A stretch of DNA of 62,425 nucleotides, the filler included, from Stramenopiles sp. TOSAG23-6 (lineage: Eukaryota), in the NCBI GenBank assembly GCA_900128565.1. It is 36 parts of 36 records of this genome, joined end to end, with 100 filler letters (N's around TTAATTAATTAA, not from the genome) between each part and the next. Parts side by side here need not be neighbours in the genome. Positions count along the whole stretch, not along the records: positions 1 to 1,650 come from LT638747.1; positions 1,751 to 3,400 come from LT638748.1; positions 3,501 to 5,149 come from LT638749.1; positions 5,250 to 6,897 come from LT638750.1; positions 6,998 to 8,645 come from LT638751.1; positions 8,746 to 10,392 come from LT638752.1; positions 10,493 to 12,139 come from LT638753.1; positions 12,240 to 13,885 come from LT638754.1; 28 more parts are not named here. One strand, 5' to 3'. How positions within the stretch are numbered: position 1 is the stretch's first letter; every line of letters starts with the position of its first letter. The notes below the pieces were generated by a model. That model did no database searches. It was not told where the DNA came from and worked only from the letters and a program-made list of their open reading frames with translations. Made by a program: the position numbers and the translations under genes. This document shows positions 277 to 62,425 of this stretch, piece by piece.

Positions 277-418
277 ATGTATTGTGAAAAATATTTTTGT
301 TTTGTAAAAAAATATTAGGTACAAAATTATGTATGAAAAACAATTTGAAATTCATGAAATTTTCATAGTAAAAAAAAATTTAGGTAAAAAATTCATGATT
401 AGGGTTAGGGTTAAATAC

Positions 419-815
419 ATGACTGTCAGCTTCTTTAATGCTAACCAGTTGATGACACAAAAGACACACTAACGAAGAACAAGTAACACATTGTCCAGGT
501 AAAGGAACTGGATTTGAACGACCTCCAGCCCATTGAATCTCTGGAGGTTGAACTAGCGCAGTATTGCACCCTTTTTTTGGACATAAAAATATTTTCTTGG
601 TTTTTGATGTTCCAAAACTATTAATTTGCTGCATCATAAATCGTGATTGGAAATCAGAAGTAATAATATCACGTTGGGTAAAGAAACTAAGCGTTTGTCC
701 AGTTATTTTGCCACAAATTGGAGGTTTGCCATCTGCTGTGGCCTCTTGGCAACCTGGGCAAAATGCGGGGAATTTCCCCTGTTGCATTGTTTCATTTAAA
801 TTTTCTGCAAGACAT
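419..815 (-). CDS. Exon of an RBR/IBR-type E3 ubiquitin ligase
   Basis: FPAFCPGC...CPKKGC...QCVTCSSLVCLLCHQ Cys/His pattern (RING1-IBR); ends at a family donor at 418. Confidence 0.6.
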
Positions 816-942
816 TTTTTACAGAAAAAAAAAAGAATGTTAGGAAAGACTGAAAGACTTCTTTTACGAAACAAAAAAAACGTTCTAAAGGAAAGACTTC
901 TTTTACGAAACAAAAAAAAACGTTCTAAAGGAAAGACTTCCT

Positions 943-1594
943 TTGACACGTCGACTAGATAGTGACGAACGAGAAATATTTGAGAGTAGTTTTCTCCGAG
1001 AAAGCTTAGATGTAGATTCATGTGATCTTTTAGCATCATCTTACACTGAAATTCCATTAGAATCGAGAAAAAACAAAATCAGTGAGCAAAGTAAAAGTAA
1101 AAGTGAGAATGAAGATAGTGAAAATTTCCAATCTGTTTTTGGTGATGAATCTGAGTTTGGTCTCAGAGCTGCAGATCCTGATGATGATATGGTATTATAT
1201 AGTCCGAGTCCAACACAGTTGAATTCAAATATTTTATTCTCTCGTACCAAAAGTTCAAATGATTCAATCAAAACGACTGAAACTGTACAGCTAGTGGAGC
1301 AATCTCTTCCAAATGATCTGTCGAGAGAGAATGAATCTTTGAGACAAGAAAAAAACAAACCCGATTCAAATCTACTCTTTTCACATAATCAAAACTCACA
1401 CGAAATTGTTAAATACACCAAAGTCAATACAGTATACTATAAAGAAAAAAGTCAGTAAAAATGTAAAATACCCTAACCCTAATGTAAAATATACTCCGGA
1501 AAAGGCAAAATACTCAAAAAAAGCGTCACTTTTATTATCAGGAAAGAAAAAAACTAAACTAAAAATGCCAACTTCGTTTCGTTCCAAAAAATGA
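943..1594 (+). CDS. Low-complexity hypothetical protein, C-terminal fragment (probable frameshift near 1450)
   Basis: Overlapping ORFs 943-1458 and 1406-1594; Ser/Glu/Lys-rich. Confidence 0.35.
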
Positions 1595-1650
1595 CTGTAA
1601 ATTTTATATATGTTTTTTAATAAAATTCCCCCAAAAATATTTACAAATAA

Positions 1651-1750
1651 NNNNNNNNNNNNNNNNNNNNNNNNNNNNNNNNNNNNNNNNNNNNTTAATT
1701 AATTAANNNNNNNNNNNNNNNNNNNNNNNNNNNNNNNNNNNNNNNNNNNN
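1651..1750. other. Artificial scaffold linker N44-TTAATTAATTAA-N44 (first of 35; recurs every ~1.73-1.75 kb)
   Basis: Identical 100-nt spacer with stops in all six frames. Flanking pieces decrease steadily in length from 1650 to about 1620 bp. Confidence 0.98.
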
Positions 1751-5249: not shown

Positions 5250-6662
5250 GAAGAGGAAAAAGGAAGAGGATCAGAAGTACCAACACCACCAGTACCAACA
5301 CCACCACCAGTACCACCACCACAAGAACCACCACAAGAAGGAAAAGAAGGAAGACGTGAAGCAGCTGAGAAAGCTGCAACAAAAATCCAAGCTTATCAAC
5401 GTGGTCGTCAAGCAAGAGCTACAGTTGCCAAAAGAAACAGCAGCGTTCCTTTCGTTTTGAATGAAAAAGCTACTGGGGAAAATATTATTCTAACTTTGGC
5501 TAATCATGGCCGTGGGGCTTTGCGTATGGTAAGCAGAGCCTTTCAAAACCGTGTGGATGACATTCAAGATCGAATTTTACAGCAGAATCGTATAAAAGCA
5601 AGAGCGATGAGACTGGAAAAGAAATTCTTTGTTGATTATCTCCCGGACGAGTGGATGCAAGAAGTTTATTTTACGCCTCGATCAGCTGCCATAGATAAAG
5701 CTGATCTGGAAGACAACCTTGCCAAAGCGATTGAGGCTTCTCATAACGATTGTCGCGAAAAAGTGAGAAAAATATTAAGTGGTTTAGATCTAAAGCAAAT
5801 ATCATTAAGTGATTACTTTATACTTGCACTAACTAATGAAGGTAAGGTTTATTCATGGTCAAGAATCGGACCATGGCAAAGATCATCCAGAGAACCAATT
5901 GGTCGATCTTCCACAGACGAAAATAAATGTATTCCAATGATTATCGAAGGATTAAGTGACGTGGTGCAAATTTCATCTGCTAGACAACACAGTATTGCGT
6001 TAACAGGGAACGGAAAAGTATTCACTTGGGGTAGAGACGAGGGGCACTACTATGGGAGTCATCAAAAAGGATATATGTTTTACTTTTTTTCAATTTCAAT
6101 TTCGAGTTTTTTTTTTGGTTCTCGTACGAAATTTTGTACCTAACAAAGTTTACAAAGAAAAATATTTGTTCACAATACATACCTTGGTCAATTTAAAACA
6201 TACCCAGCCACAGAATACCGTAGTCAATTTAGTACTCTTCAAAACAATGTTTTTCATCCAACACTTGTGAAAGGAGTAAAGGGAATGTTTATTGTTGAAG
6301 TATATGCTTGGAATTCCACAACTTTACTACGATCAATATCTGGTCAAGTATTTTATTACGGTGATTTTATTGGTCCATTTGTTCCGAATATGTCTCGCCG
6401 AGATGGTAGCAAAGGTGTTGTACCATTGCCATTTCGTGTATTCCAATTTAGGAAAGGACAAAAAGTATTGGCTAAACATGACGACGGGCAATGGTACCCG
6501 GCTACTATTTTATGGGTGGGTATCGGTTATTATGATACAGATTACGAGGTAAAATTTGATGATGAAAAGAAGATACTGGTACCAGGAAGGAGTCGAAGGA
6601 GTGTCGGACAAAATGAGGAATTCATCCGATCAATGAATTCCGAGTCCGACTCTTCCAAATAA
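5250..6662 (+). CDS. RCC1-repeat protein with an IQ-like motif and a C-terminal Tudor-like domain; intron 6073-6180
   Basis: ALTNEGKVYSW, HSIALTGNGKVFTWGR, FRKGQKVLAKHDDGQWYPATI...YEVKFDD. Splicing gives KGY/LGQ in frame. Confidence 0.75.
6073..6180 (+). other. Family intron, AT-AT termini
   Basis: GGA T|ATATGTTTT...GTACCTAAC...CACAATACAT|AC CTT GGT. Confidence 0.75.
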
Positions 6663-6997: not shown

Positions 6998-8645
6998 AAA
7001 TGGATACAGATCACAGTGGTGTAGTTACATGTGACGAATTTATTGAATGGCATTGGGCACACAATCGGAACAGTACAACTGGATCCATTCAAAATGAGGT
7101 GACTAAAGATCTCGATAAGAATAAAAGCTGTTCATATTTCATTCCTGGTCTTTCGAAAAGATATCTTATGAGTAAGTTTTGTGGTGTATCCGTCGAAACA
7201 CAAGGGAAAATGAATGAAGTTGAATTTGGTCTTTTGGTACAAAATATTGCTCTTGATATCGATAATATTGATAATACGAGGAGTTTTGATATGATTTCGT
7301 GTCTTGGTGGAAGGTCTTCTTCTGAGTGTTTTTCAGAGATTGATCGATTATGTCGCGGGTATATACTGTACGTTTCAAAATTAAACGAATTATGTTTTTC
7401 ATACGAAAGTTTGTACCTAATCATTTTTTTACAAAATATATTTTTTTTTACAAAACATGATTGATGACTTTCTTTGGTGGTATCGTCTATATCGTCCTGA
7501 GACACCCGGAGAGATTAAATCACAAGTTAGATTTTTATTTAAGCATATTGATAAGAATAATGTAGGATATTTAACAAAGTCTGGATTTCGAGAATTATCA
7601 GAAAAACTAAATCTTGGACTCACAGATGTCATATCGAGAATAGAACATAAGTTTGATGATACATTCTCCCAAATAGATTTGTGTAAACAAAATCGGGTGT
7701 TCATTGATGATTTACTCCGATGGCATGAAAAATCGTATGAATATTTATATACAAATCGATCAACACCAACAAAGTTTTTATATTCAATATTTAATTGGCT
7801 TTTATCGATTGACCAAGAAACTTCAGAAAGTAAACCAAGTAAAAACAATGAATATTTACATGGATATCTCACAGAGAAACATGTATGGTTTCAAAATTGA
7901 ATTTCGAATTTGTTTTTTTTTGGTAAAAAAATTTCGTACCTAACAAATTTTTTTTATTATAATATTTTTCCAAAATACATCTTGGTTCACTTCTTATATA
8001 TGTAAATGAAACTGTTGAAACATGTTTTAATACAGACGGTGTTATTTTGTGTACAACAATTTCAGATGGTTTTCAACTTATTGATCGAAAACATTGTGGA
8101 AAAATTAGTTTTAGTGATTTCGTGTGGTGGCATAGATTATATCATAAAAATACATCGATTGAAATTGTATTTCAACTTTTATATTTTTTTAATATCGTAG
8201 ATGATACTAATGAACATGTCATTCATAAAGATCAACTGGAAAATTTATTTCATTTTATGAATGAAAAGTTTAAGTATTGTTTTTCTCTGGATGACTGGAA
8301 TCCCCAATGGAAAGATGAATTTATGAATTTATCTAGTATATCAGGTGTGAAATTTCGTGACATTGTTTCTTGGTTGAAACACAAAACACCAAATTTATTT
8401 TCAAATCGTAGAATGAAAATTTGGGATGAAATAAAACATCAATGTACAATGGACGACACGAATTTATATAAAATGCACGAATTACTTGAAAAATCATTGA
8501 TACAAAATATTGTACAGTGTTATGTATGTTTTATTTTTTTTTTAAACAAAAAATCAATTTTTTTTTTATAGTAAATGTTGTACCTAACAAATTTTTTTAG
8601 ATTTTTTTTTTTTGAAATATTTTTCCAAAATACATCCTCTCCAGA
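6998..8645 (+). CDS. Multi-EF-hand protein, partial; GT-AT introns at 7368-7458, 7883-7980 and 8524-8635
   Basis: DTDHSGVVTCDEF, IDKNNVGYLTKSGF and IDRKHCGKISFSDF motifs; the ORFs join in frame after intron removal. Confidence 0.75.
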
Positions 8646-8800
8646 NNNNNNNNNNNNNNNNNNNNNNNNNNNNNNNNNNNNNNNNNNNNTTAATTAATTA
8701 ANNNNNNNNNNNNNNNNNNNNNNNNNNNNNNNNNNNNNNNNNNNNAATTTTGTACCTAACGATTTTTTTTTTTTTTTTGAAATATTTTTCCAAAATACAT

Positions 8801-8893: not shown

Positions 8894-9012
8894 GTATCTT
8901 TTATTTTTTTTTCAATTTTCTGTCGAATTTTTTTTTTTTTTTTTTTTTTAAACTAAAAAAAAAATTGTAACTAACAATTTTTTTTTTTTTTAAATATTTT
9001 CCAAAAATATAT

Positions 9013-10312
9013 CGAAATTATTTAGCAATCAAAGTTCTAGAAAAAATGTTTCCGTATAATTTGTTAATAACAGGAGCCATAGATTTTCAACTACCAAGAA
9101 GATTAAATGTTATTTTTTTACGATTATTTGTATCTCTTTATGTAGACCGGGTACCGCAGCATTCATGTACGTTTTATTTTTTTTTACAAAAAAATCAAAA
9201 AAAAAACATTCGTACGAAATTTTGTACCTAACAAAATATTTTCAATTTTTTTTTTGAAATATTTTTCCAAAATTCATTGCCTCTCCCATTACTTACTAAA
9301 AATGTATATCCATGTACAACAAAAAGTATAGAAAATAATACACAAAATAATACACAAAATAATACACAAAGTATAGAAAATACACAAAATATAGAAAATA
9401 ATCCACTTTTATCAAGTCATGTAAAGACTAATATCAATAATAATATCAATAATAGCAATAGTAGAGAGACAAAATTTATTGGGTTGTCTGGAGGTTTTTT
9501 ATGTACAGAAAACTCAAATAAGTTTGCTTTACTTCAATGCTTTATAGAATATTATTTACTGAATCATCAACAGGTAAAGCATATACAAAAAGATGAAGAG
9601 TCATCAAGTTCATCAAGTACAGAATTAAATACAAAAAGCAATAGTATAAAAGCAATATATCCGGAATATTCAATAAAACTACAGTCTACGAGACAGAATA
9701 AAAACTATACTCCAAATAATGTCTATAATCAAGAATATAATCAAGAATATAATCAAGAATATAATCAAGAATATAATCAAAAATATAATCAAGAATATAA
9801 TCAAAAATATAATCAAGAATATAATAAAAAAGTTGGAAAAGATATCAATAGGGAGTTGCGTCTCGCACTTTCTATACAATCAAAACAAAAATATCATTTA
9901 GAACAAAAAAAAAAAGAATATCACAATCGTCAACGGCGAGAACATAAATATACCAGGGAAATTTGCTATGCATTACACTTATTATTTACATTTGGTTTTT
10001 ATGCAAACCCTAGTCAAGTTTCACGTATTACAAATCCACTCTCCTTACTCGTTCAAGACCAAGACGATAACAGCTGTCACAGAACAACATTCCTGAAATC
10101 ATCGCAATCTAAACGCAATGGATTTGTTGTACAACCATATAATCAAGATAATAATTATAATTCATCGAAACACCAAAAAAACAAAACAAAATGGAGAAAC
10201 GAAAAAACATCGCCGCGCTCCTAGAGTTAGTGTTGGTGGATCAATGTATGAATTATTTCCTGCAAGTACATTAGAAGTTTTGGGGCCAATAGGTATAGAA
10301 GAAGGCTGTCCT
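9013..10312 (+). CDS. Inositol 1,4,5-trisphosphate receptor-like channel fragment; GT-AT intron 9167-9277
   Basis: RNYLAIKVLEKMFPYNLL...LPRRLNVIFLRLFVSLYVDRVPQ parallels the IP3R DRQYLAI...LP..LRASF..L...HVDRDPQ segment; a later LLFTFGFY motif also fits. Confidence 0.7.
9725..9826 (+). repeat. 12-bp coding tandem repeat (TATAATCAARAA, about 8 copies; YNQE/YNQK)
   Basis: Direct inspection. Confidence 0.9.
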
Positions 10313-10558
10313 GTATGTTTTCATTTCAATTTCAAATTTATTTTTTCGTACCAAATTCTGTACCTAGCGATTTTTTTGACTAAAATTTTAAANNNNNNNN
10401 NNNNNNNNNNNNNNNNNNNNNNNNNNNNNNNNNNNNTTAATTAATTAANNNNNNNNNNNNNNNNNNNNNNNNNNNNNNNNNNNNNNNNNNNNGTTAGGTA
10501 CAAAATTTCGTATGAAAAATAAATTCGATTTTTTTGTTAAAAAAAAAAAATAAAACAT

Positions 10559-27822: not shown

Positions 27823-28014
27823 NNNNNNNNNNNNNNNNNNNNNNNNNNNNNNNNNNNNNNNNNNNNTTAATTAATTAANNNNNNNNNNNNNNNNNNNNNN
27901 NNNNNNNNNNNNNNNNNNNNNNGAAAAATATTTCAAAAAAAAAAAAACTAAAATTTGTTAGGTACAAAATTTCGTACGAAAATAAATTCGAAATTGAAAA
28001 AACATAAAACATAC

Positions 28015-36503: not shown

Positions 36504-36705
36504 NNNNNNNNNNNNNNNNNNNNNNNNNNNNNNNNNNNNNNNNNNNNTTAATTAATTAANNNNNNNNNNNNNNNNNNNNNNNNNNNNNNNNNNNNNNNNN
36601 NNNAATGTATGTTTTATTTTTTTTCAAATTCGAGTTTTTTTTCATACGAAATTTTGTACCTAACAAATTTTAGTTTTTTTTTTGAAATATTGTTCCAAAA
36701 TACTT

Positions 36706-41075: not shown

Positions 41076-41115
<40 letters not shown>

Positions 41116-41701
41116 AAATTTTTGAAACAAAAATTTTTTTTTTTTCGAAAAATTTTTTATTTTTTTTTTTGTAATTCATGATGCAAACGTACATGGCCCC
41201 TCATAGTTTTCATGACACATTGTCCATACGTTTACCATATTTTTTATTTGTTTTTCATCTTCCATCAGTGTTTCTTTAACGGTAGGGTTTTTGTCTCTTT
41301 CTTCCATTACATTTTGAACATTTTGAACATTTTGTTTGTGGGTGGGTTCTTTAGGGTTAGGGTTGGGTTCTAATAATTTCCTAGATGGATTAGGGTTAGG
41401 ATTTTGTAGATTCTGTGTGAGATTACACCCCAAGCCACGATTTTCTAATGTTTGACACCTAATTAATGATAAAACTTGTATTGGTTCTGTGGGAGATGTA
41501 CTTGATATTTCTTTATCAAATTCAATATATGGTTTTCTATTTAGACTGTCATCAAGTAAAGACTTTCGTATAGATTCTAATTGCCAATGTTCGGAATCGA
41601 TTTGCATATGAATTAATTCTGTTCTTTCATTTTCACATAATGCACCCTCTGGACATCGTATACATCGAACACCCAAATTAAGGGAGTTGTATTCATCATT
41701 G
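40070..41701 (-). CDS. Cys-rich multi-pass membrane protein fragment; family introns 41062-41192, 40775-40877, 40461-40602 and 40248-40357
   Basis: CIRCPEGALC, MCHENYEGP/LCHLC, then TM helices and KIVFQYSQ; all four junctions restore frame. Confidence 0.7.
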
Positions 41702-43432: not shown

Positions 43433-43585
43433 NNNNNNNNNNNNNNNNNNNNNNNNNNNNNNNNNNNNNNNNNNNNTTAATTAATTAANNNNNNNNNNNN
43501 NNNNNNNNNNNNNNNNNNNNNNNNNNNNNNNNTGTACCTAACGATTTTTTTTAGATTTTTTTTGAAATATTTTTCCAAAATACAT

Positions 43586-48100: not shown

Positions 48101-48773
48101 CTACATCGGAGATCCGAAATTGAATCAATTTTTCGAATGGCAATTTGCTAAAGTTAACTTGACATTACAAGAAAAAGTTGTACCAGAATTGTGTACGTTT
48201 TCAAAATTGAATTTCGAATTTATTTATTTTTTCGTAAAAACAATTTTGTGTCTAACAAATGTCGAATGTAAAATATACTTTCACAAAATATCCTTATATA
48301 CGAGATCTCTTCTTCATGTACGTTTTCATTATTCATTTCAAATTTATTTATTTTTTTTCATACGAAATTTTCTAAGTAAGAAATTGAATTGTTTTTTTGA
48401 GTTTTTATTCGATACGTTTTTCATTATTCATTTTTTATTTATATTTGTTTTTGTATTTTTTATTCTTATAATTTTATTTTTTGTATTTATTAAAAGTTGT
48501 ATCAAAATTACAAAACTAACAAATTTTATTATAGAAACATATTTTGTACAAAATATCATACAGACACAACCCTTATCGCCCTTCCTGAAATTAGTCATGT
48601 ACGTTTTATTTTTTTTTCAATTNNNNNNNNNNNNNNNNNNNNNNNNNNNNNNNNNNNNNNNNNNNNTTAATTAATTAANNNNNNNNNNNNNNNNNNNNNN
48701 NNNNNNNNNNNNNNNNNNNNNNACAAAATTTCGTACGAAAAAAAATTCGAATTTGAAAAAAAATAAAACATAC

Positions 48774-48925
48774 ATGCCCACATCATTCCAAGTAATGGCA
48801 ATGCATCCGGAATGAGTCGAAATAGAGTGCGAAAAATTGACTGAAACCGATGAAACGAAAATACAACAAAGTATTTTGAAAAAATATTTTACATTTGAAA
48901 TTCGTTAGGTACAAAAAATATTTTG

Positions 48926-48956: not shown

Positions 48957-50261
48957 AATTTAAAAAATTCATGATGAAAAATGTACCGTCCAAATCGAGC
49001 AAGCCGTAAGACTAAAATAAACTGCAAATATCGTTGAGCAGAATCACCTTCTCCGTTTTTTTTCACATCGAGAAAAACAACAACAGCAATGAATTGCATA
49101 AAGCATACATGTATTGTAAAAAAAATTAAATTCGAAATTTGTTAGGTACAAAATTTTTATAAAAAACTAAAAAATTAAAAAAAAAAAATAAATTTGAAAT
49201 TCATAATGAAAACGTACGATGAAGTCTACAACATTTGCTCTGCTAGCAAAATATTTATGAAATCCAAGGACAGAATTCTTCAAAACCATTTCTACAATGT
49301 AAACAAGACAAAATGACAATTCAATAGCTGCAGAACTAAAATTAACATCTTGGTCTAATTCAAGAATTACAAACGTCGCATTTAGTAGAACAACCGTTAC
49401 CATGTATTTTGGAAAAATATTTCAAAATATTTTTTTCCGTAAAAAAAAAAAATTGTTAGGTACAAAATTTTTTTACCAAAAAAAAAAAAAATGTAGACAA
49501 AAAATTGAAAAAAAATAAAACATACATAATAGCTTCGAAAATCCAATGAAGGACAATAAAGCGTAGGAACCTTCTAGTACTTTGACACGGTGACCACAAA
49601 TCTGTCACAGCGGTATCAAGATCCATTAAAACACGAGATATATTATGAAAAATATTTTTTTTTTTTTTTTTTTTTACGAAAAAAAAAAAAATTGTTAGGT
49701 ACAGAATTTCCTATAAAAAAATATATAATTTGAAATTCATGATGAAAACGTACATGCACGATTCATATTTCTAATTGTTGTATATCTTTGGGTATTCGCA
49801 AATTGACTATAATCACTACTATTAGTATTTGTTACATCAGATGAATTTTTAAAATTTTTAGAATTTTCATCATATGAATTTTTAGAATTTTTAGAATTTT
49901 CATCATATGAATTTTTAAAATTTTTAGAATTTTCATCAGATGAATTTTTAGAAATTGTTTGATATGGTGGGATGTATAATCCATTTCTTCTTTCTTCATT
50001 GTATTTACGATTTCTCCTATTTTTATTTGTTTTGGTTCGATGAAAGCATTCCTCAATACAAAATACAAATTCATCAAACGATACGTAATGCTTTTGAGAC
50101 AATGACGAAACAGTATAACATTTATCATTTAATACATTTTTGCTTTCAAGATGGTTTTCATTTGTTTGTATATTTGATGAATATTTCATATTTATCATTT
50201 TGGTGTGTAAAATATCAAGAATAAATTTCTCTGGAGCTAAAATATTTGCATCTGCAGCTAC
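48774..50261 (-). CDS. Two-pore channel (TPC)-like fragment; family introns 49638-49753, 49402-49525, 49109-49217 and 48869-48986
   Basis: VYIVEMVLKNSVLGFHKYFASRANVVDFIV; FILVLRLARFGRVV; degenerate EF-hand VSFDEFV upstream. Confidence 0.8.
48869..48986 (-). other. Family intron, GT-TT termini
   Basis: GGA CG|GTACAT...AAAATACTT|T GTT GTA gives the S4 sequence RLARFGRVV. Confidence 0.75.
49109..49217 (-). other. Family intron, GT-AT termini
   Basis: GAC TTC ATC|GTACG...CAATACAT|GTA TGC gives DFIVC. Confidence 0.85.
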
Positions 50262-50319
50262 ATGTAATGTGTTTTTTTTTTCAAATTTATTTTTTTCTGT
50301 TAGGTACAAAATTTCATAC

Positions 50320-50352
<33 letters not shown>

Positions 50353-52080: not shown

Positions 52081-52319
52081 NNNNNNNNNNNNNNNNNNNN
52101 NNNNNNNNNNNNNNNNNNNNNNNNTTAATTAATTAANNNNNNNNNNNNNNNNNNNNNNNNNNNNNNNNNNNNNNNNNNNNAAAAAGAACTACAATCTCTC
52201 TAGTCAAAATCTAACTTTTAAAATATGTTCAAAATTGAATTTCAAATTTATATTTTTTTTTTCGTACGCATTTTTGTAACTAACAATTTTTTACTATTTT
52301 TTTTTTTTTCACAATACAT

Positions 52320-53360
52320 ACGTCAAACTATTCTGGGGAATTAACATTATTGAAGGATAGTTTATGTTGTCCTATCTATAATGTAAACTCTTTTGATAAC
52401 CAACATTTATTATTAAAAGTTTGCGATAAAGAAGCCTATAAACAGGCGAATCGAATTTCAACATCAAAACAATCTCGCGCGGTGTATAATACTAATGCAT
52501 CTATTGCCTCTCCTTTTCCTAAAATTGACAGTTTTGTACGGTCATATTTAAGTAGTATTCCTGGACCAATGCCACCGTGTATCCGACAGTCTACTTTTTT
52601 ACCACCAAGTACAATTGTATATGAAATTTCACAAAATCGATATTGTGAACGTATCAGGAGAGAGCATCGATCAAATAATGTGTATTATGTAGCTAATATA
52701 CAAAAGTCTACAGTAAAAGATGATACTATTGCCGGTGATAAAAATATCGTAGGTGGTTGGTTGTACCAAAAATGTCATGATATCGAGTGTAAACAATCAA
52801 ATTTTAGATCTAATGGTGTTCCTATCCCACATAATGTTACTGTAGATATCGGTTGGAATTGGGATAACGAATGCCTTGAGAGTGGTAAAAATGAAAATGT
52901 GTCACCCAGTACAGCGAAAAGTGTACTTTTAAATAATGTTGAGAAGTCTTGTTGTGACATTTCAGATAATGTAGATGATAATTGGCTTGATGATGATGAC
53001 GATGATGTAATATTGGCTGCTGTTGAGGACGTGGAACGTTCTATATTAGATAGTAGTCTACTGACGAATGTTTCAGAAAACACAGATGATGATCAAATAG
53101 ATGATGATCAAATAGATGATGATGCAATATTAGCTGCTGTTATGGACGTGGAACGTTCAATGTTGGATAGTAGTCAACTCTTATCAGAAAACACAGATGA
53201 TGATCAAATAGATGACGATGCAATAGATGACGATGCAATATTAGCTGCTGTTGAAGATGTGGAAAGGAGTCAATTTTCAATGATTGAAAAGGAAGAGGAT
53301 GAAATAGATAAAAGCTCTTGTTTGGCCATGGATGAATTCGAGAGCTCATTTATGATTTAA
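52320..53360 (+). CDS. PRIMPOL: PrimPol C-terminal UL52-type zinc finger and acidic tail
   Basis: NRYCERIRREHRSNNVYY...YQKCHDIEC...FRS; preceded by a probable AT-AT intron 52223-52319. Confidence 0.88.
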   Translation, partial: TSNYSGELTLLKDSLCCPIYNVNSFDNQHLLLKVCDKEAYKQANRISTSKQSRAVYNTNASIASPFPKIDSFVRSYLSSIPGPMPPCIRQSTFLPPSTIVYEISQNRYCERIRREHRSNNVYYVANIQKSTVKDDTIAGDKNIVGGWLYQKCHDIECKQSNFRSNGVPIPHNVTVDIGWNWDNECLESGKNENVSPSTAKSVLLNNVEKSCCDISDNVDDNWLDDDDDDVILAAVEDVERSILDSSLLTNVSENTDDDQIDDDQIDDDAILAAVMDVERSMLDSSQLLSENTDDDQIDDDAIDDDAILAAVEDVERSQFSMIEKEEDEIDKSSCLAMDEFESSFMI

Positions 53361-53913
53361 CTATACACTGGACACAACATCATGATTGATAAAAACCTTT
53401 TTTAATAAATATACTTAATAATAATTTGTTCATATTTGCTTTGCATAATCTCCATAGTGTTTTTTTTACTGAAACATTATAATACTCCAGAATCATATCC
53501 TACAGTTGTGATTACTTCATCAAATCTTGCATCCACAACAGCAGCTGCTTTTGAAGATTTTGGCCTTTTTGAAAATATCTTCTGCCGTATTTTTATCACG
53601 AGAAAAATTACAAGCAAAAATATCACTATACCCGATGTGATCAATCCAATCATGAGATTTTTAGAAATTTTCCTTTTTGAGTTCTCTTTTTCAATTTCAT
53701 TCTTCTTGTTAAACCCTGGACCGTCATTTTGTGGATCCGTTTTATTGATACCAGCAGCAGCTTTATCAGCAGCAGCTTTATCCGCAGCAGCTTTATCCGC
53801 AGCAGCNNNNNNNNNNNNNNNNNNNNNNNNNNNNNNNNNNNNNNNNNNNNTTAATTAATTAANNNNNNNNNNNNNNNNNNNNNNNNNNNNNNNNNNNNNN
53901 NNNNNNCACTTAC

Positions 53914-53931
53914 CGAGGCTGCACTACCCAT
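53914..53931 (-). CDS. Possible first exon MGSAAS (N-myristoylation-like) with a canonical donor
   Basis: ATG GGT AGT GCA GCC TCG|GTAAGT, divergent from TSR1. Confidence 0.35.
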
Positions 53932-54273
53932 ATTCTACAGTAGTTTACTAATCCTATTCTGTTGCTAATCCTATTCTCGTCAACGACAACACCATATCAT
54001 TTTATTGATTAAAGTATAGCGTAAAAATGATATTTTTAGTCTTCGTTGGTACAATAAATAATTGATTTACACGACTTGAAACTGTCACAACTCTAAAACA
54101 CGAAACCCAAACACTGTAAAATATTTTTGTACATAATATTTGTACGTAAAGCGAATTGAAATCGAAATGTGCTGACTCCAAAGTGATTGATGTTCAGCTC
54201 TATATGTGGCTCTTTTCTAGCTAGTGTATCGTAGTGTAGTATTGGTAATTCTAACTTCGATTTACAATTAACC

Positions 54274-55481
54274 ATGGTAAATGAGACCCACCGCCATCGT
54301 TCTGGTACTCAAAAGCAGAAAAATAAGACACACAAGCGAAGTAATATTAGTAAGCGTGCTTTGAAAAGATCAGCTCCAGGTCGTATTGAAGCGCCGACTA
54401 AGCGCATTTCAATTAAAGCTGGCGAAAAAGTCAATAATGCAAAAAGAAAAAAGAACCGGGCCAAGCAGCTGAAGCAGCAAAAATTGGACCGATTACGTTC
54501 TCAGCGCCGCCTTGGTGGAGGTTCTAACGCACCAAAGGTTGTTTCTATACTACCATTAGCAGAAGGTGTCGATATTAATTCAATAGTGTCTGGTTTAACC
54601 GGAAGCACCGGGACAACTCCTAGTTGTTCTCCTCTTGGACATGCGACGGTCGAGTCTCGTAAGCTCAAGCAACGCTTTACATTTATACCGACTATGCGTA
54701 GCGTTCCGGGCGTACTAGATGCTGCTAAAGTAGCTGATGTTATTGTAGTTGTTCTCCCAGCACAGCATGGACAAGAGCACTGCATTGATGAGTTAGGTGA
54801 TGCTTGTATTTCTGCCTTGAGAGCTCAAGGTCTTCCAGCAGTGATATGTTTGACTACTGGTTTAAAGCAACTTCCACCAAAGCGCGCCCCAGAGATGCGT
54901 AAATATGCAAAGCGACTTTTTACAACTGAGTTTGGCGATTCAGTAAAAGTTCTTGATGATGGGAACTATTTCCACGTACTAAGGGCCTTAAGTGACGTTC
55001 GATTGAAGGAATTGAAATGGCGAAATTTGAGACCATATATTGTTGCTGATTCTTACAATCTATCAGAAGGTTCAAACAACGATTCATCAAATTTGGTGAA
55101 TCTTCAAGTGAAAGGTTACCTTCGAGGATCGGCATTATCACCAAACCAATTGGTTCATATCACAGACGTTGGAACATTTCCGTTACAAACTATGTATGTT
55201 TTATTTTTTTTCAATTTCGATTTTTTTTTTCGTACGAAATGTTGTACCTAACAAATTTTAGTTTTTTTTTTTTTAAATATTTTCCAAAATACATTTCTGG
55301 TACTTCTGATCCCTGTAAAACAAAAAGGTCAAAAATATTGGATGAAGAAAAACTTCTTTTGACTTCTGATCCTTCTATTGTAAATGAAGATTTCATGCGC
55401 TCCGAGGTGATGCCGACAGATGATTGTTGTGAACAAACCTGGCCAACCCAAGAGGAAATGGCGGTAGCTAGAATGGAGTAT
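54274..55481 (+). CDS. TSR1: Pre-rRNA processing protein TSR1, 5' part; GT-AT intron 55194-55294
   Basis: HRHRSGTQKQKNKTHK; LDAAKVADV; LRAQGLP; WRNLRPY; GYLRG...NQLVHITDVGTF; EQTWPTQEEM. Confidence 0.95.
55194..55294 (+). other. Consensus-like family intron, GT-AT termini
   Basis: ACT AT|GTATGTTTT...CGTACGAAATGTTGTACCTAAC...TCCAAAATACAT|T TCT GGT. Confidence 0.9.
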
Positions 55482-55686
55482 GTATGTTTTATTTTTTTTT
55501 TTTAACAAAAAAATCGAATTTATTTTTCGTACNNNNNNNNNNNNNNNNNNNNNNNNNNNNNNNNNNNNNNNNNNNNTTAATTAATTAANNNNNNNNNNNN
55601 NNNNNNNNNNNNNNNNNNNNNNNNNNNNNNNNGTACGAAATTTTGTACCTAACGATTTTTTTTTGAAATATTTTTCCAAAATACAT

Positions 55687-57169
55687 GCCTTGCGTTTGAA
55701 ACATGTTTCTCAGCCCCTACTGTCGCAGTATTTAGTACAGATCGTTGGTATTACCTTTTAATACAAGGAATTTTATTAGGTTTATTGCTTGATGTCGTTC
55801 AATTTGAATTATTTTTAATTGTCACTCAATCGATGGCTAGATTTGAAAATTGGGAAACTGCAACAGCGTATGATTTTTCATTGGCAAAAAAACAATTTTT
55901 ATTCTTATGGGTGAATATGTATGTCTGGTTTTGGGGACTTGGGTTAATATATGTACCATATGGTCCATTTATTTGTGAATACTTAATTCGAATTGGTATG
56001 GGATATTTAGTGCCTGCAAAGGGATGGATGGATAATACAATTAATGTCGATGAAGCTTTTCTTACTCCGCTTGTAGCAACGCAAAGTATAAATCTTTTAT
56101 TAGAAACTTTAGTGCCATATTATATTGGTAAAGCAATGCACAAAAGTAAACGAAAAGCAAAAAAGAAGAGGCACCAAAAGATCATAAAAGAAGGCCATAC
56201 AGAACCAAGAGAAATGACTGGGTTGGAGATTCAACTACGAGAAAAAGGTCTTGGGTCTCTTAAAAAAGGATGGAAACTTTTAAAATCTTCACGAGTACAA
56301 TTACGTGGTTATGCCAAACAAGCACCAACAGCTGGAACTAAAGTATTCAGTGCTATAGCTCATGTTTTTAAAACATCAGAGGAAGAGAAAGGTCGAAAAC
56401 GAAAAAAACTAGCGAAAACATTATTAAAACAAGTTTATTCCCAAATGCAGGAAGCTGATGGCGTTTCCTGTGATATGAAGAAGTTAGATATGCTCGATGC
56501 TTTATATTCTGATTATTATGTGCTGGATATGGTACAAAATGGGGCAGGTGGAGTCTTACGACCAATGTTGTCTATACGAGGTGACTTGGCACGAAATTTA
56601 GCAAAATATAGAACAGTAAGAGAAGGATATATCTCATTTGAAGAGTTATGGAACTGGTCACTTCAAACGAATTTGTGGAAAGAGAATATACTATCTTATA
56701 ATTCTAAAGATGGCGTTGGTGACATCAACACAAAATCGCTTATCAACACAAGTTCACATCAAAGGGAGATGATTGCTGCTGTATTAGCAAAATACTCATC
56801 CGGAATATCTTACTGTCAATCACTAGCTGCAGTTGTTGGAAGAAAATATCATGTAAAAATTGATGTACATTTGGAAACACCTGATATGAATGAGTATTGT
56901 GCAACGGATGTGACGGAGCAAAGCTTACTTGGCCAGTTTGATCCGAGAGATGATTTTTTGGATGTATTGCTTCAGCTAGGATATCAACTTCAATTTACTG
57001 TAGCATGGCCCTTTATACCACTGTGTTGTTTAGTGAATAATTACTTTGAAATTCCGTCGGATTTATTTAAACTTTTGTTTACATGTGCACGCCCTATTCC
57101 AAGACAACAAGACAGTTTAGCAGAATGGGAAACTATGCTGTGGTGGGAGCCAATACTTTCATGTCCAAT
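55687..57169 (+). CDS. Anoctamin/TMEM16 family protein, internal exon
   Basis: MARFENWETATAYDFSLAKKQFLFLWVN; DDFLDVLLQLGY...AWPFIPLCCLVNNYFEIPSDLFKLL...RPIP. Confidence 0.9.
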
Positions 57170-57419
57170 GTATGTTTTATTTTTTTTTCAAATTCTATTT
57201 TGTTTCGTACGAAATTTTGTACCTAACGTTTTTTTTTTCAAATATTTTTCCAAAATANNNNNNNNNNNNNNNNNNNNNNNNNNNNNNNNNNNNNNNNNNN
57301 NTTAATTAATTAANNNNNNNNNNNNNNNNNNNNNNNNNNNNNNNNNNNNNNNNNNNNTAGGTACAAAATTTACTATAAAAAAATAAATTCGATTTTTTTG
57401 TAAAAAAAAAAAAAAATAT

Positions 57420-58144
57420 TCTTTTTTTTTGGGGGGGGGGGGAACCTACTCCTCCAGTAAAAGGTAAATCCGTTGGTAGCCCAAGTACGATCGATCCGTC
57501 AATGTGACGTCCGTCTACATGTATTTTGTAAAAATATTTCAAAAAAATTTTCGTAAAAAAAAAATTTGTTAGGTACAAAATTTCGTACGAAAAAAATAAA
57601 TTCGATTTTTTTTTTACCGGAAAAAAAAAAAAATAAAACACACACCTAAGAAGGGAATGCCTATTGGCCCATATTCACGATCACTAAATGTACCATATCC
57701 AGGAGTATTGTAATCTTTGAAACCACCTCCATAGTCAGAGCCTTTGACATGGATTATGAAAAAATATTTCAAAAAATTTTCTATAAAAAAAAAAATTGTT
57801 AGGTACAAAATTTCGTACGAAAAAAAAAATTCGAATTTGAAAAAATATAAAACATACATACATTTGCTCCCAATTGGTAAACTCTGGTCGGAAATTTTGT
57901 GGTGAACTTTTTCTTTGGTTTGCTTTTGATGTTGAATCAACACTTTGTTCTTTTATGGCTTTTATGGCTTTTGTGGCTTTTATGGATGTAGAGACAGTTG
58001 TATCTGATTTTTTTTTCTTGATTTTGAATGCATTATTCCGAAGCGCCAAAGCATGAACACTTGACGTTTGGTGTAAGACATTGAAAGAATGAAAGTAATA
58101 TGAAATTGTAATAATATGAAATAAAAATGAACTGGTCATAGTCA
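57420..58144 (-). CDS. Predicted secreted hypothetical protein; family introns 57749-57857 and 57519-57643
   Basis: Exons join in frame: WEQMY/VKGSDYGGG...PFLG/VDGRHIDGS. Confidence 0.6.
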
Positions 58145-58538
58145 CTAAAATTATGGAATTTTGTTTTACTAAGCCCTTCTTTTACATGCAAGTTGCAAAG
58201 ACATCATAAACGATCAATATCTGATCTCGATCTTCTAGTTTTATATTTTGATCTTTGAAATTTGAATTGAAAAAAATTCACCAAAATCCCCGGTGATTTC
58301 GGAGAAAAAAAGAAAAAGTTACCCGGCACCCAAACCGAAATGGAGCGAGGTAAAAAATTATTGTTATTTTGAAGCATTTTGAGCATTTTGCTTTCTTCGA
58401 AGCGAAACCAAACAAAAAACGTGTGTCCTCGTCCTCTGTACTTCGTCGTACTACACAACATTATTATAAAGTGGACGTGTTTATATATTAACCAAAAGAG
58501 AGAGCCTCAGAGAAAGTCTTTGATTATTCTCTTGTGGC

Positions 58539-58981
58539 GATGGACATTACTGTGGACTCGGAAGTGCTGCACGTGAATACCAACGGCACGCCACCCGCTT
58601 CCTCCATTTCAAAGAAAGAGATTTCTCAAACTCCTGAGGGTCCTAGTAAAGGGGAACTTACGGATCCAAAAAGCATAGCCAGTACTGAAAACGATATCAC
58701 CGAAAATAATGTGTCAACCCTAAATACAACGAAAGACGATAGTACGATGGATACCAAATCTGAGAAAATAGATAAACCTCAATTATCAGTGGAGAACCAA
58801 AAAGAAGAACATAGGATGTCGAGTTCTTTGTCGAGTTCCGAAAGTACGTCGAGTTCCGAAAGTATTACATCAAAGGCTGCAGAAAGTAAAGGGGAAGTAG
58901 ACACTAGTGTAGAAACATCGGAGGAAAAAGTTTCACAGTCCTCACCTAAGAATCAAATAGAAAAATCGGAGGAAAAAGTTT
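58539..58981 (+). CDS. Ser/Glu/Lys-rich hypothetical protein, N-terminus
   Basis: ORF open to the scaffold end. Confidence 0.45.
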
Positions 58982-59132
58982 NNNNNNNNNNNNNNNNNNN
59001 NNNNNNNNNNNNNNNNNNNNNNNNNTTAATTAATTAANNNNNNNNNNNNNNNNNNNNNNNNNNNNNNNNNNNNNNNNNNNNTGAAAATTTTGTACCTAAC
59101 AAATTTCGAATTTAATTTTTTTTACAATACAT

Positions 59133-60618
59133 GTGATCCTGCTTTTCAAAGGTATTATACTGATGATAATGCACGTGTATGTCTTAATTTTTTTTCAAAT
59201 TGTTTTTTTTTTCGTACGAAAGTTCGTACCTAACAAATTTTAGTTTTTTTTTTTTGAAATATTTTTCCAAAATACGTTCACTTCTAGCTGGATTAGCAAC
59301 TCGGTCACTTTTGCGTAACTCGGCATGGGACTCTATCATTGTAAGTGCTGTACTAGCTAATTTGCGTATGGCTGGTCCAAGTGGCTTTGCAGATGGATCA
59401 CTAATGTTTAGTGATATTGCAAAAAGTGGTTGGGAGGCACGATCTGCAAAGGATCACAAGAATATTAAGAGTGTATATTCACCACACTACCAATCTTACA
59501 TTTGGGCTGTTTTCCTTCGAATGTATAAAATAACTGGATACAAACCTCTTTTAGAAAAGGCCAAAAATGCCATTTCAAATATGATGGACAAGTACCCTGA
59601 ATGGTGGCAAAGTACGAGCAATGGTATCACAATGCAACGGGCACGAATGATTTTGCCACTTGCATGGTTAGTCATGGTAGAAGACACACCGGAGCATCGG
59701 CAGTGGCTTGATGTAATTACTCAGGGTTTGCTTGAAAGACAAGATATAAAAACGGGTGCGATTCGTGAGGAAATAAGTGGTAAAGGTTGGGGGTCCAGTG
59801 CACGTGTACCAAACAACACAAATTACGGTACATTTGAAGCACCGCTTAACCAGTCAAATGAAGATCCAGTAAGCGATCTTTTGTATGTTTTATTTTTTTT
59901 CAAATTCGAATTTATTTATTTTTTTATAAAAATTTTGTACCTAACGAATTTTTTTTTGAAATATTTTTACAAAATACATGTACACAACAAACTTTGCTTT
60001 TCTTGGTCTTCATGAAGCAGTACATGTATGTTTTAAAAATTGATTTTTTTGGTCTAAACATTTTTTTATAGGATTTTTTTTTTACAAAGAAAAAAATGTA
60101 TATTTTTGTACCACTAATGCTGTTGGTCCAACAACTGAAATGGGAAAACGATATATGGCAGCTGAGGATCGTCTGGCAAATTTGCTAGTTCGTGCACAGG
60201 TTACCAGTGGTGCTGTTTGGTCCAATGAGGATACAGACACGACAGATTGGGAACACACTGAGCTAAATGGGGCATGTATGTTTTCATCATGAATTTATTA
60301 TTTTTTTTTCGTACGAAATTTCGTACCTAACAAAACAAATTACAAAAAAAAATATTTTTTCACAATAAATGGTTTCGTGCCTTTGATTTTGAAAAGTGGG
60401 AATATTGGGCTTCTGATAGTGATATTGGTTGGGGGGCATGTACATTTTCATAATGGATTGAAAATTAATTTATTTTTGTACCAAATTTTGTACTTCTGAA
60501 AAAAAATCGAATTTGACATATTTTTTCATAAAACATGGTCTATTGAGACAGGTTGGACACAAGCATGGATTAGCTCTGTATTTGCCATGCGTCAACTAAA
60601 TCAGAGTTTGTGGGACAT
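59133..60618 (+). CDS. Six-hairpin glycosidase-like protein; family introns 59177-59277, 59883-59979, 60026-60118, 60276-60370 and 60440-60536
   Basis: Spliced product: YTDDNARSLLA...ERQD...NYGTFEAPL...DPVSDLLYTTNFAFLGLHEA...LNGAWFRAFDFEKWEYWASDSDIGWGAWSIETGWTQAWI. Confidence 0.75.
59177..59277 (+). other. Family intron, GT-GT termini with GT repeated at both junctions
   Basis: GCA CGT|GTATGT...CAAAATACGT|TCA CTT. Confidence 0.75.
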
Positions 60619-60861
60619 GTATGTTTTATTTTTTTTTTTTTGTATGAATTTTTTTTCATACGAAATTTTGTACCTAACAAATTTTTTTAGATTTTTTTTG
60701 AAANNNNNNNNNNNNNNNNNNNNNNNNNNNNNNNNNNNNNNNNNNNNTTAATTAATTAANNNNNNNNNNNNNNNNNNNNNNNNNNNNNNNNNNNNNNNNN
60801 NNNACTTTGTAAAAATATTTCAATTTTTTTCTTGTTAGTTTATTGGGTACAAAATTTCATA

Positions 60862-60897
<36 letters not shown>

Positions 60898-60989
60898 TTT
60901 TTTAGGGACAAAATTTCATAGTAATTTTTTTTTTTTTTTTTTTTTTGTTAGTTTATTAGGTACAAAATTCTCTATTAAAAAAAACATAC

Positions 60990-62365
60990 ATATTCTTTCC
61001 GTCTACCTATAAATTTTTTCATATTATTCCATGACCAAGAATATTTTAGTGCATTTTTATAGTTTTGATGAAAATCATTATTTTTATTAAAATCACCAGT
61101 AGTAGATTGAGATACATTTGGAATTTGTGTCTTTGACGATTTCATGAGTTGTTTTTGAGCTATACTGTATTGTACAAAAATATTTTTTTTTTTTGAGATT
61201 TTTAATTTTTTTTCGTTAGGTACAAAATTTCCTACAAAACAAAAAATTAAAATTTTGAAATATATATTTTTTTTTTAAATGTTTTTTGTTAGGTACAAAA
61301 TTTACTACAAAAAAAAAATTGAAATTTTGAAAACATATATACATCGACAAGCATGAATCCACCAAAGCTTTGGTAGTTGAGATATTGATATATTTGGCCG
61401 ATGCTCCCGACACGATTCTACAACACGAAATATGCGTATTGCATTTTCAAGTGCTATGACGTCATCGTATTGTCTCTGATGAAAGTGTACATTCATATTT
61501 TCAAAATTAGCTTTAATTTGTAATTTAGGAAAATTTAAATTCATTTTATCATTTAATGCTATATGAGCTTCAACAGAGATAGGAAGTAAAATATGATGAG
61601 AAAATTTTGATTTTTTTGATTTTTTTGTTTTTTTTGTTTTTTTTGATATTTTTGATATTTTTGTTTTTTTTGTTGTTTTGGTTGGACTAGGGTTAGGGTT
61701 TGTAGATGATGTTTCTTCATAAATCATTTTCAAGAGTTTTTCGTGTCGTGTCTCTCTACAATTTTCTTTTGATATCAATTTCACCATCGTCGATTTCCAA
61801 TACAGTGAAACATCAGATAGACGTCCAAACTTGAAAACTCTCGTTTCATGTATTACAAAACATATTTGAAATATTTAAAAATTGTTAGGTACAAAATTTC
61901 GTACGAAAAAAAAAATTTAAATTAAAAAAAAAATTTTTGAAATGTTTTTTTTGAAATGTTTTTTTTGAAATGTTTTTTTTGAAATGTTTTTTTTGAAAAT
62001 GTTTTTTTTGAAATTTTTGAAAACGTATATTTTTATTCGACTCTATTGATTCATCATGAAATATAGTCTCATCATCTGCATTTACTGTTTTTATACTACA
62101 ATATTTGAGAGTTAAACCAACAGCAAAATTATTTTTATTTGAATATTCATCTTCATATCGAATAAATTTTGGGAAAATATTTCAAATTTTTTTTTTACAT
62201 TTTTGTTACAATCGATTTTTTTTTGTTTTACTATACAAATTTCGTATTTAAAAAAAAAAANTTAAAACCTTTGGTACAAAATTTCGTATTTAAAAAAATT
62301 ATACATTCCAAATTGAAATAAAGTATGANAACGTACATGTGAAGATTACAAATGTCTATTTGAAT
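60990..62365 (-). CDS. VPS13: VPS13 N-terminal (chorein) region; family introns 62162-62336, 61848-62028 and 61165-61338
   Basis: IQIDICNLHI/RYED; FAVGLTL; SLYW; QRQYDD; LWWIHA; WSWNNM...RRKEY. Confidence 0.9.
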
Positions 62366-62425
62366 ATGAGTTTTGGAAAAATATTTCAAAAAAAATCTAA
62401 AAAAAATTGTTAGGTACAAAATTTC

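Follow-up and report, generated by a model that had tools for sequence, protein, structure and literature searches.

A high-copy family of intron-like elements with GT and AT ends in the protein-coding genes of a marine protist

Few signals in eukaryotic gene expression are as constant as the terminal AG of introns, which is read early by U2AF35 and again in the catalytic centre. A stretch of 62,425 nucleotides (nt) from Stramenopiles sp. TOSAG23-6 (assembly GCA_900128565.1), here called the window, raises the question of whether a genome can do without it. Genes in the window are interrupted by a recurrent element of about 100 nt, AT-richer than the exons, that begins as a conventional intron does and ends in AT. 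An earlier note on this DNA had taken the elements for introns of a GT-AT splicing system. Its description of their anatomy and of removal exactly from GT to AT stood up to the analysis, by reading frames as well as by homology, and the further step to a modified spliceosome is one that we infer. The window is composed of 36 contigs of 1622-1650 bases each, placed in descending order of size and separated by 35 linkers of the form N44-TTAATTAATTAA-N44; its GC content per 2 kb is 0.23-0.38.

Copies of the element were found by iterated nhmmer searches seeded with the copy in TSR1. These gave 72 matches, 66 of them non-overlapping. Contigs 43533-45162, 45263-46892 and 46993-48622 are mutually identical (1630/1630 bases) and are exact duplicates in the assembly; leaving out the second and third reduces the count to 57, close to the 60 or so copies reported before. 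The matches are spread over 22 of the 36 contigs and lie in unrelated genes. Because 21 of the 72 contig ends fall within 40 nt of a match, the repeat breaks the assembly. Twenty-seven complete copies of 91-125 nt were curated, with a mean column identity of 61% when aligned. Their orientation is sense, as had been claimed: in 48 of 51 flanks (3 were skipped) coding scores better on the element strand, and one seemingly antisense match (17475-17523) lies ahead of an open frame that belongs to a converging gene and has the same strand as the match.

The ends of the element are highly regular. Among 34 distinct 5' ends, 32 begin with GT and two with AT, and the hexamers GTATGT (17), GTACGT (9) and GTAAGT (1) are those listed in the earlier note; the donor consensus is GTATGTTTTA, which lacks C at both +5 and +6. 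The 38 distinct 3' ends comprise 34 AT, two TT, one TG, one GT and no AG. Of 24 copies, 23 have a CTAAC-like motif, also noted before, at 33-57 nt from the end; it forms a nearly invariant block, and a GUAC hairpin of 4-6 base pairs (bp) lies just before it. The consensus of the 27 complete copies is GTATGTTTTATTTTTTTT...TTTTTCGTACGAAATTTTGTACCTAACAAATTTTTTT...TTTTTTGAAATATTTTT.CA.AATACAT, and the conserved tail reads ...AAATATTTTTC(C/A)AAATACAT. At least 90% conserved or invariant are the first seven bases (G1, T2, A3, G5, T6), the CTAAC-type block (GTACCTAAC / TTTTGTACCTAAC) and the last ten bases. Two traits of U2-type introns are therefore present, a GT donor matching U1 and U6 and a CTRAY branch motif, and the third, the terminal AG, is absent.

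The reading frames of the surrounding exons require that these elements be removed at precisely these ends. Lengths of the 27 complete copies fall into all three classes modulo 3 (7, 12 and 8 copies), so that retention would shift the frame in 20 of them. For a frame test, a codon log-odds score was trained on 17 long open frames and the best frame was called separately for each flank. Flank frames agree with removal of exactly GT...AT in all 24 informative copies of the 27 examined (chance probability 3.5e-12); 8524-8635, 36607-36705 and 52223-52319 were uninformative, having a 10-nt, 3-nt or weak flank. A scan of open frame length cannot discriminate between acceptors, as the tail of the element is itself open in frame. 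Nearby AG acceptors, for which the earlier note had allowed, do not rescue the proteins, because 17 of 24 copies have no AG between the CTAAC-type motif and the end, and an in-frame, stop-free AG after the branch-like motif occurs in only two of 24, the copy at 28102-28206 and the one in TSR1.

Homology leads to the same boundaries. The TSR1 gene contains the following features (here and below, a slash marks the border between exon and intron, or a split codon):

55194-55294, plus strand: complete copy in TSR1, GTATGT...ATACAT, 101 nt (frame test, colinear relative)
55484-55532, plus strand: 5' part of the next TSR1 intron, cut by the contig end, GAGTAT/GTATGTTTTATTTT... (read from the sequence; no profile match)

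A relative that is 68% identical to this TSR1 is colinear over 55194-55294 (FPLQTISGTSDPC versus FKLRQISTPSDPC). It reads ...GTFKLRQISTPSDPC... where the two exons give ...GTFPLQT(I)SGTSDPC..., there is no gap, and the split codon AT/T supplies the common Ile. Use of the in-frame AG acceptor would add 11 residues that the close relative lacks. The TSR1 coordinates had thus been given exactly.

The gene on contig 59082-60703 has five introns, the number previously counted between 59177 and 60536; four of these are profile matches and the fifth is degenerate:

59177-59277, plus strand: complete copy, GT...GT with GT flank, 101 nt (frame test, homologues)
59883-59979, plus strand: complete copy, TT/GTATGT...ATACAT/GTAC, 97 nt (frame test, homologues)
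60026-60118, plus strand: degenerate intron, GTATGT...CACTAAT, no profile match (homologues)
60276-60370, plus strand: complete copy, GTATGT...AATAAAT, 95 nt (frame test, homologues)
60440-60536, plus strand: complete copy, GTACAT...AAAACAT, 97 nt (frame test, homologues; spanned whole by a DNA contig of seawater metagenome X3, described below)

With the 202-residue exon 59278-59883 (P0001) as query, 329 relatives were identified in a library of 1.84 billion proteins, the best of which is 73% identical and 787 residues long; P0001 had no relative in the metagenome_contigs collection. Successive exons abut in P0002 coordinates by tblastn (707/708 and 730/731), and the translation spliced by the GT...AT rule shows no insertions or deletions at four junctions against 150 homologues. 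At the 59177-59277 junction (YYTDDNAR/SLLAGL) none of the 150 aligned homologues has an insertion. The split codon TT/G at 59883-59979 encodes Leu, which is found in 123 of 130 homologues, and a shift of -2 would give Met. At both 60276-60370 and 60440-60536 the split codon T/GG encodes Trp, as in 98 of 119 and 94 of 111 homologues, respectively. The GA/WFRAFD junction named in the earlier note is likewise confirmed by homologue alignment. In the fifth intron, an acceptor at 60103 would leave five residues that are absent from 146-147 of 150 homologues; ending the intron at 60118 (...CACTAAT) removes them and gives this intron an AT end also. Two AGs inside 60026-60118 are out of frame, as determined by hand from the sequence. 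Given frames and residue-level homology together, we conclude that removal of exactly GT...AT is needed for conserved proteins to be made.

Pfam searches recovered the interrupted genes that had been named before, including TELO2, VPS13, ribophorin II and one encoding an ion-transport-domain protein. In VPS13, successive exons match VPS13_N profile positions 163-202 and then 206-341, and the large exon also matches a solved VPS13A chain. The translation reads NLHI/RYED as previously proposed, and it is to this extent that the proposal is borne out. Two introns were delimited in this gene:

61851-62028, minus strand: VPS13 intron with A at +1 (ATACGT...AATACAT), holding match 61859-61924 (boundaries from frame alone)
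62164-62326, approximate, minus strand: VPS13 intron between NLH(I) and RYED, GTACGT...AAATTTAT, holding match 62245-62316 (translation)

A protein search with a ribophorin II exon returned no relatives at near or longer lengths. The family-like intron of that gene contains a 13-nt unit, TTTTAAAATGTAT, repeated 7.2 times at 44018-44111. The ribophorin II copies and the other curated or family-like copies in the window are:

6073-6180, plus strand: complete copy with A at +1 (ATATGT...ATACAT), 108 nt, RCC1-like gene (frame test)
7368-7458, plus strand: complete copy, CT/GTACGT...AAAACAT, 91 nt, EF-hand gene (frame test)
7883-7980, plus strand: complete copy, 98 nt (frame test)
8524-8635, plus strand: complete copy, 112 nt, short right flank precludes the frame test (curated copy)
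9167-9277, plus strand: complete copy, GTACGT...AATTCAT, 111 nt (frame test)
16285-16381, minus strand: complete copy, 97 nt (frame test)
17044-17148, minus strand: complete copy, GTAAGT...TTACAT, 105 nt (frame test)
20435-20525, minus strand: complete copy, 91 nt (frame test)
28102-28206, minus strand: complete copy in TELO2, 105 nt (frame test)
28375-28482, minus strand: complete copy in TELO2, 108 nt (frame test)
33706-33850, plus strand: family-like intron, CAT/GTACGT...TTATACAT, no profile match, end approximate (read from the sequence)
36607-36705, plus strand: complete copy ending ATACTT, 99 nt, short left flank precludes the frame test (curated copy)
40248-40357, minus strand: complete copy, GTTTGT...CTACAT, 110 nt (frame test)
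40775-40877, minus strand: complete copy, GTATAT...ATACAT, 103 nt (frame test)
43715-43809, plus strand: complete copy in ribophorin II, TT/GTATGT...ATACTG, 95 nt (frame test)
43993-44188, plus strand: family-like intron in ribophorin II, GTACGT...GATGCAT, with the 13-nt tandem repeat (boundary from frame alone)
44257-44350, plus strand: complete copy in ribophorin II, 94 nt (frame test)
44733-44831, plus strand: complete copy, GT/GTACGT...AAAATAT, 99 nt, equal to 48193-48291 of the duplicate contig (frame test)
49109-49217, minus strand: complete copy in the ion-channel gene, TC/GTACGT...ATACAT, 109 nt (frame test)
49402-49525, minus strand: complete copy, 124 nt (frame test)
49638-49753, minus strand: complete copy ending ATATAT, 116 nt (frame test)
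52223-52319, plus strand: copy with A at +1 (ATATGT), 97 nt, weak left flank (curated copy)
57519-57643, minus strand: complete copy, GTGTGT...ATACAT, 125 nt (frame test)
57749-57857, minus strand: complete copy ending ATCCAT, 109 nt (frame test)

The elements are also present in environmental DNA and RNA. Sequence words from 53907-62425 occur at 0.79-0.81 in X1 and X2, two small DNA runs from a single sample, at 0.28-0.56 in seawater metagenomes from another study (X3-X5) and at 0.09-0.18 in seawater metatranscriptomes; since they are found in both kinds of seawater data, we take the source organism to be a marine protist. Contig 59082-60703 was the one compared with environmental runs, namely metagenome X3 and three RNA runs (X6, X7 and X10). 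In X3, 7287 contigs match it, nearly all on element segments, and its single-copy exons have a depth of 9-13. The element family is very numerous in this sample, the summed depth not being a copy number. X3 contigs run from exon through intron to exon at exon depth (record 9, 59248-59909; record 12, 60060-60309; record 15, 60337-60584) with 0-5 differing letters per piece, or about 98-100% identity, and record 15 covers intron 60440-60536 whole without a difference. RNA runs X7 and X6 have 1444 and 1180 matching contigs, mostly on element segments, whose loose ends run into varied flanks. No intron-skipping joint is among the joints listed for the X3 DNA and the RNA runs, and contigs drop rare variants.

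A separate observation concerns X10, in which record 5 (165 letters, depth 5.3) has 49 letters on 59833-59881, stopping one base before the predicted donor, and 14 adapter letters on the other side. Depth bins 60072-60126 (0.96) and 60127-60181 (3.37) correspond to 10 and 35 letters at depth 5.3, that is, to 60117-60161, a segment whose start would precede the predicted acceptor of intron 60026-60118 by 2 nt. By this arithmetic the record is consistent with a spliced complementary DNA fragment; the joint is absent among the 15 joints listed, and the record is not counted as evidence.

The best reading of these data, to which we give a probability of roughly 0.55, is an introner-type family spliced as GT-AT by the spliceosome. 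On this reading the protein-coding genes of an AT-rich marine protist were invaded by a high-copy, mobile-element-like family of introns ('introners'). Every copy carries its own set of signals: a donor like that of yeast (GTATGT or GTACGT), then a small GUAC hairpin, a CTAAC branch-type motif, a T-run and the conserved tail. The cell would remove, on the pre-messenger RNA, exactly the segment from the donor G to the T of the terminal AT, using a lariat-forming (U2-type) spliceosome with a second step that accepts ...CAT in place of ...YAG. We infer removal at the RNA level, the spliceosome as its agent, AT as the recognised 3' site and spread by transposition. A broader version has essentially all introns descending from one mobile family, the major spliceosome re-tuned to ...CAT, a genome-wide GT-AT code and an introner burst of thousands of copies; we would put this at slightly less than even odds. 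A clear GT-AG intron was seen nowhere in the window, where no systematic search for one was made.

Several points weigh against splicing of this kind. An A at +1 is unusual for U2-type introns and occurs in 3 of about 37 copies (6073-6180, 52223-52319 and approximately 61851-62028, the last on the minus strand); these copies (ATATGT or ATACGT) still end in AT, and the frame test still demands exact removal at 6073-6180. The conserved termini could serve transposition instead of splicing. In well-studied spliceosomes the last G of the intron is read at the catalytic step, and we found no organism with uniform GT-AT major introns in the literature searched. No spliced junction was seen in RNA; for runs X7 and X6, which have zero cover on the exons of contig 59082-60703, this speaks neither for nor against splicing. 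One X6 contig (record 22, depth 2.2) continues unspliced through the acceptor of intron 60026-60118. As many RNA contigs carry the element together with flanks, retention is not rare or the libraries contain some DNA.

The element has possible marks of mobility, and here three points can be added that were absent from the earlier note: an equivalent AT-AC reading in most copies (weighed below), inverted termini, and a target signature (AT/CATG-like) of the sort typical of mobile elements. The core starts with GTAT and ends with ATAC, forming inverted repeats. The exon dinucleotide that flanks the element is AT in 25 of 34 copies, against an expected share of 0.10 (p 2e-18). Position -3 holds C more often than expected (13/34, p 0.003), and the exon base that follows the intron is enriched in G (19/38, p 2e-5). 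Together these preferences make up a loose palindrome, CATG, centred on an AT that was either duplicated or preferred, and the element looks as if it had inserted at AT. Among the seven copies with a non-AT flank, one (59177, with GT on both sides) repeats the flank at its 3' end, so that a genuine 2-bp duplication is no more than possible. The open frames scanned included no transposase, and no autonomous element was seen. The element core had no matches in the viral_contigs and genome_contigs collections. A 19-mer of the core was found at three loci (L001-L003) in the metagenome_contigs collection; the 19-mer is all that these have in common, and they are likely chance matches.

Of the alternatives, the one that survives best, while still unlikely, is that the inserts are introns removed by a non-spliceosomal, structure-guided route resembling that of euglenids and diplonemids, with paired termini, an unknown enzyme and possibly released circles. 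Genomes dominated by non-canonical introns are described, in the portions of the sources available to us, for Fritillaria (PMC13326754), hemistasiid diplonemids (PMC12621601) and euglenids (PMC4770533, PMC6221363), with diverse ends and a non-canonical donor. The likeness to the euglenid and diplonemid introns, as far as those texts describe them, includes non-AG ends, complementary termini, a suspected mobile origin and abundance in marine protists known from single cells (PMC12621601, PMC6221363, PMC4770533). In the window, exon AU plus GUAU is complementary to AUACAU, with the two cut sites 2 bp apart across that helix, and the ends are paired in the minimum-energy fold of five of eight folded copies. 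However, over 27 copies standard pairs make up 82.2% of cells at the four terminal positions, as compared with 81.5% in shuffles, and 161 of 500 shuffles do equally well or better. There is thus no support from covariation, and the terminal complementarity is a property of the consensus that is not demonstrably selected. Folding is weak (z-scores from +0.6 to -2.9, mostly above -1.4, with one of eight below -2), so that neither stable, selected end-to-end pairing nor the variable borders without a U1-type donor of euglenozoan nonconventional introns are seen here. Those introns lack both a U1-type donor and a CTAAC motif and pair +4..+6 with -8..-6, according to the available text (PMC6221363, PMC4770533). 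The elements, in contrast, have uniform borders, a perfect U1/U6-type GTATGT and a conserved CTAAC, and the pairing in question is absent (TGT versus AAA).

Ancestry is equivocal on this alternative. The best named relatives of the protein of contig 59082-60703 are from hemistasiid diplonemids (P0004, Namystynia, and P0005, 'Hpha'; 54-56% identity), a group reported in the accessible part of one paper to have mostly noncanonical introns with paired ends (PMC12621601), whereas those of TSR1 are from oomycetes (35-40%) and not from euglenozoans. In both genes a EukProt protein is far closer than the named relatives (73% and 68%, respectively). As the named relatives of the two genes disagree, we would not assign a lineage from them on protein similarity, and an atlas search likewise placed the DNA no more narrowly than Eukaryota.

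Next in order, and improbable in our view, is a placement of the boundaries two bases upstream, which would make most copies AT-AC introns (ATGTATGT...ATAC) handled by a minor-type or AT-AC-tolerant spliceosome. With AT directly upstream in 25 of 34 copies, an AT...AC cut yields the same messenger RNA there, and AC occupies -4,-3 in 31 of 38. The branch site of U12-type introns is located roughly 10-20 nt from the intron end, and here the branch motif is 33-57 nt away and not close to it. The donor, GTATGT or GTACGT, also lacks the U12 motif RTATCCTT. G and A are both found at the first core position, as in U12-type introns, and the available text of a preprint on Physarum (10.1101/2020.10.12.336362) gives GT-AT and AT-AT as rare U12-type variants, with the same terminal dinucleotides and tolerance of G or A at +1; the U12 branch motif there lies 9-12 nt upstream of the end. 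Nevertheless, conservation is higher for GT (32/34) and AT (34/38) than for the shifted pair, AT (25/34) and AC (31/38). The upstream flank is not AT at 59883, 43715, 44733, 7368, 49109, 57519 and 59177, and in the first of these the shifted cut places Met where 123 of 130 homologues carry Leu. Boundary shifts of 0 to +3 are allowed in copy 59883 (upstream TT, exon resuming GTAC) and of -2 to 0 in copy 55194. If a single rule is to serve both, the shift is 0 and the boundaries are GT...AT.

More doubtful again is excision from DNA. In ciliates, internal eliminated sequences are cut out of the DNA itself and carry no splice signals; they share with the elements a short AT-rich insert in coding sequence, a 2-bp repeat of which one copy is left, and the need for precise removal. 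A domesticated transposase acting at a 2-bp repeat could similarly clear a somatic genome, in keeping with the AT...AT flanks, the single GT...GT copy, the inverted termini and the palindrome-like target described above. Such sequences would be expected to be missing from bulk DNA, but X3 has the intron-bearing form at exon depth and no intron-skipping joint among the joints listed, although some intron-free DNA may be present at low frequency. The elements are also transcribed, at a level in poly(A) RNA libraries beyond DNA carry-over: were the element cover of X7 due to carry-over, the X3 ratio would by our arithmetic predict approximately 3-fold exon cover, and none is seen. Sense orientation and the kept donor and branch motifs are not needed for excision from DNA, and all genes read with the standard genetic code.

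That the inserts are never removed, being parts of decaying gene copies or artefacts of assembly or amplification, is very improbable: the assembly is fragmentary with three exact duplicate contigs and there are RNA contigs with retained elements, but in 24 of 24 copies the exons on either side of the insert keep an open frame and stay in register; these exons show 68-73% identity to full-length relatives without a frameshift, and are separated by the same introns in the independent metagenome X3 at about 98-100% identity. The remaining probability is assigned to mixtures of these explanations or to something not considered.

Splicing of a GT-AT introner family can be set beside two known systems. 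Introners are known from Micromonas, Aureococcus, Symbiodinium and Chrysochromulina. In the part of one survey available to us, they are described as many similar, short, AT-rich introns that can be spliced in the sense orientation, with short inverted termini, and as frequent in marine protists (PMC9860276). The family in the window is similar in its many short introns in unrelated genes, AT-richer than the exons, in its inverted termini, and in a target or duplication signature that feeds a splice site. It differs in that described families are GY-AG and none of 38 ends here is AG, in that splicing is deduced from DNA, and in the lack of a visible autonomous element. A 2025 introner survey, in its accessible portion, treated 3' sites other than AG or AC as unfamiliar, so that such families were dropped unless supported by RNA (PMC12130899). 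We found no description of a GT-AT introner family in the literature searched, which did not extend to the supplementary tables of introner surveys, where an earlier description is possible. The tunicate Fritillaria borealis has non-canonical introns in which duplicated U2AF subunits are implicated, and the available text offers a precedent for a U2 spliceosome evolving non-AG ends and for re-specification of 3' end recognition (PMC13326754). There, both ends are non-canonical and diverse, whereas the window combines a textbook 5' end and branch motif with a uniform change of the final base alone, from AG to AT, at the 3' end.

The window also contains partial, nested and degenerate matches:

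8746-8798, plus strand: 3' part of a copy at a contig start (profile match)
17475-17523 (+), 19067-19117 (-), 29503-29559 (-), 43533-43583 (+), 55632-55684 (+), 59085-59129 (+) and 62371-62425 (-): further 3' parts at contig starts (profile matches)
10324-10377, plus strand: 5' part of a copy at a contig end (profile match)
10492-10532 (-), 27923-27999 (-), 48723-48758 (-), 57187-57257 (+) and 60649-60703 (+): further 5' parts of the same kind (profile matches)
15999-17341, minus strand: AT-rich stretch with degenerate or nested matches at 16124-16164, 16467-16535, 16582-16615, 16893-16925 and 17283-17341 (profile)
314-354, minus strand: weaker or partial match (profile)
34413-34472 (+), 37431-37463 (+), 44890-44939 (+), 48871-48918 (-), 50298-50328 (-), 57358-57395 (-), 60950-60993 (-), 61212-61254 (-) and 61285-61331 (-): other weak or partial matches (profile)

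The minus-strand match at 61212-61254 is a tandem or nested copy that ends ...ACAATACAG where the family has ...ATACAT; its AG is unusable by reading frame, and the in-frame choices end in AAT, CA or TA. Contig 15731-17374 carries seven nested or degenerate matches. Also present are ten homopolymer runs of 28-37 A or T (e.g., 16023-16059, 41079-41108, 50321-50352 and 60865-60896), several of them in or beside degenerate copies. No element match was found in 14 of the 36 contigs (e.g., 13986-15630, 22702-24342 and 31396-33031), some of which have uninterrupted frames of 421-545 residues.

Genes identified in the window include those for coatomer alpha, Kelch/BTB, TELO2, AP-4 epsilon, anoctamin, TSR1, VPS13, ribophorin II, RCC1-like, EF-hand and ion-transport proteins. 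The long open frames translate under the standard genetic code, and the products are ordinary eukaryotic proteins. An open frame at 52284-53357 has a Herpes_UL52-type primase zinc-finger domain (E 1e-9) and may encode a PrimPol-like protein. Six 12-nt TTAGGG/CCCTAA dimers (399-410, 1471-1482, 33348-33359, 34077-34088, 37636-37647 and 41351-41362) are probably not telomeric; the one at 34077 is in a coding-like context (AAC CCT AAC CCT, encoding Asn-Pro-Asn-Pro) and that at 399-410 is near the 5' end of an intron. An Rfam scan of the window returned no families, and hence no small nuclear RNA (snRNA) in it.

If RNA data confirm the proposed splicing, the machinery of this organism reads intron ends differently from that of other known eukaryotes. 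It would then be a natural experiment on which parts of 3' splice-site recognition are changeable, with compensating changes in Prp8, Slu7/Prp18, U2AF or snRNAs. It would also mean that a non-AG end is no bar to the spread of a mobile intron family, in a host that was tolerant beforehand or was forced to adapt, which bears on bursts of intron gain. Gene finders that insist on AG would get all genes of such organisms wrong, and the organisms would escape introner surveys in which unfamiliar splice sites are filtered out.

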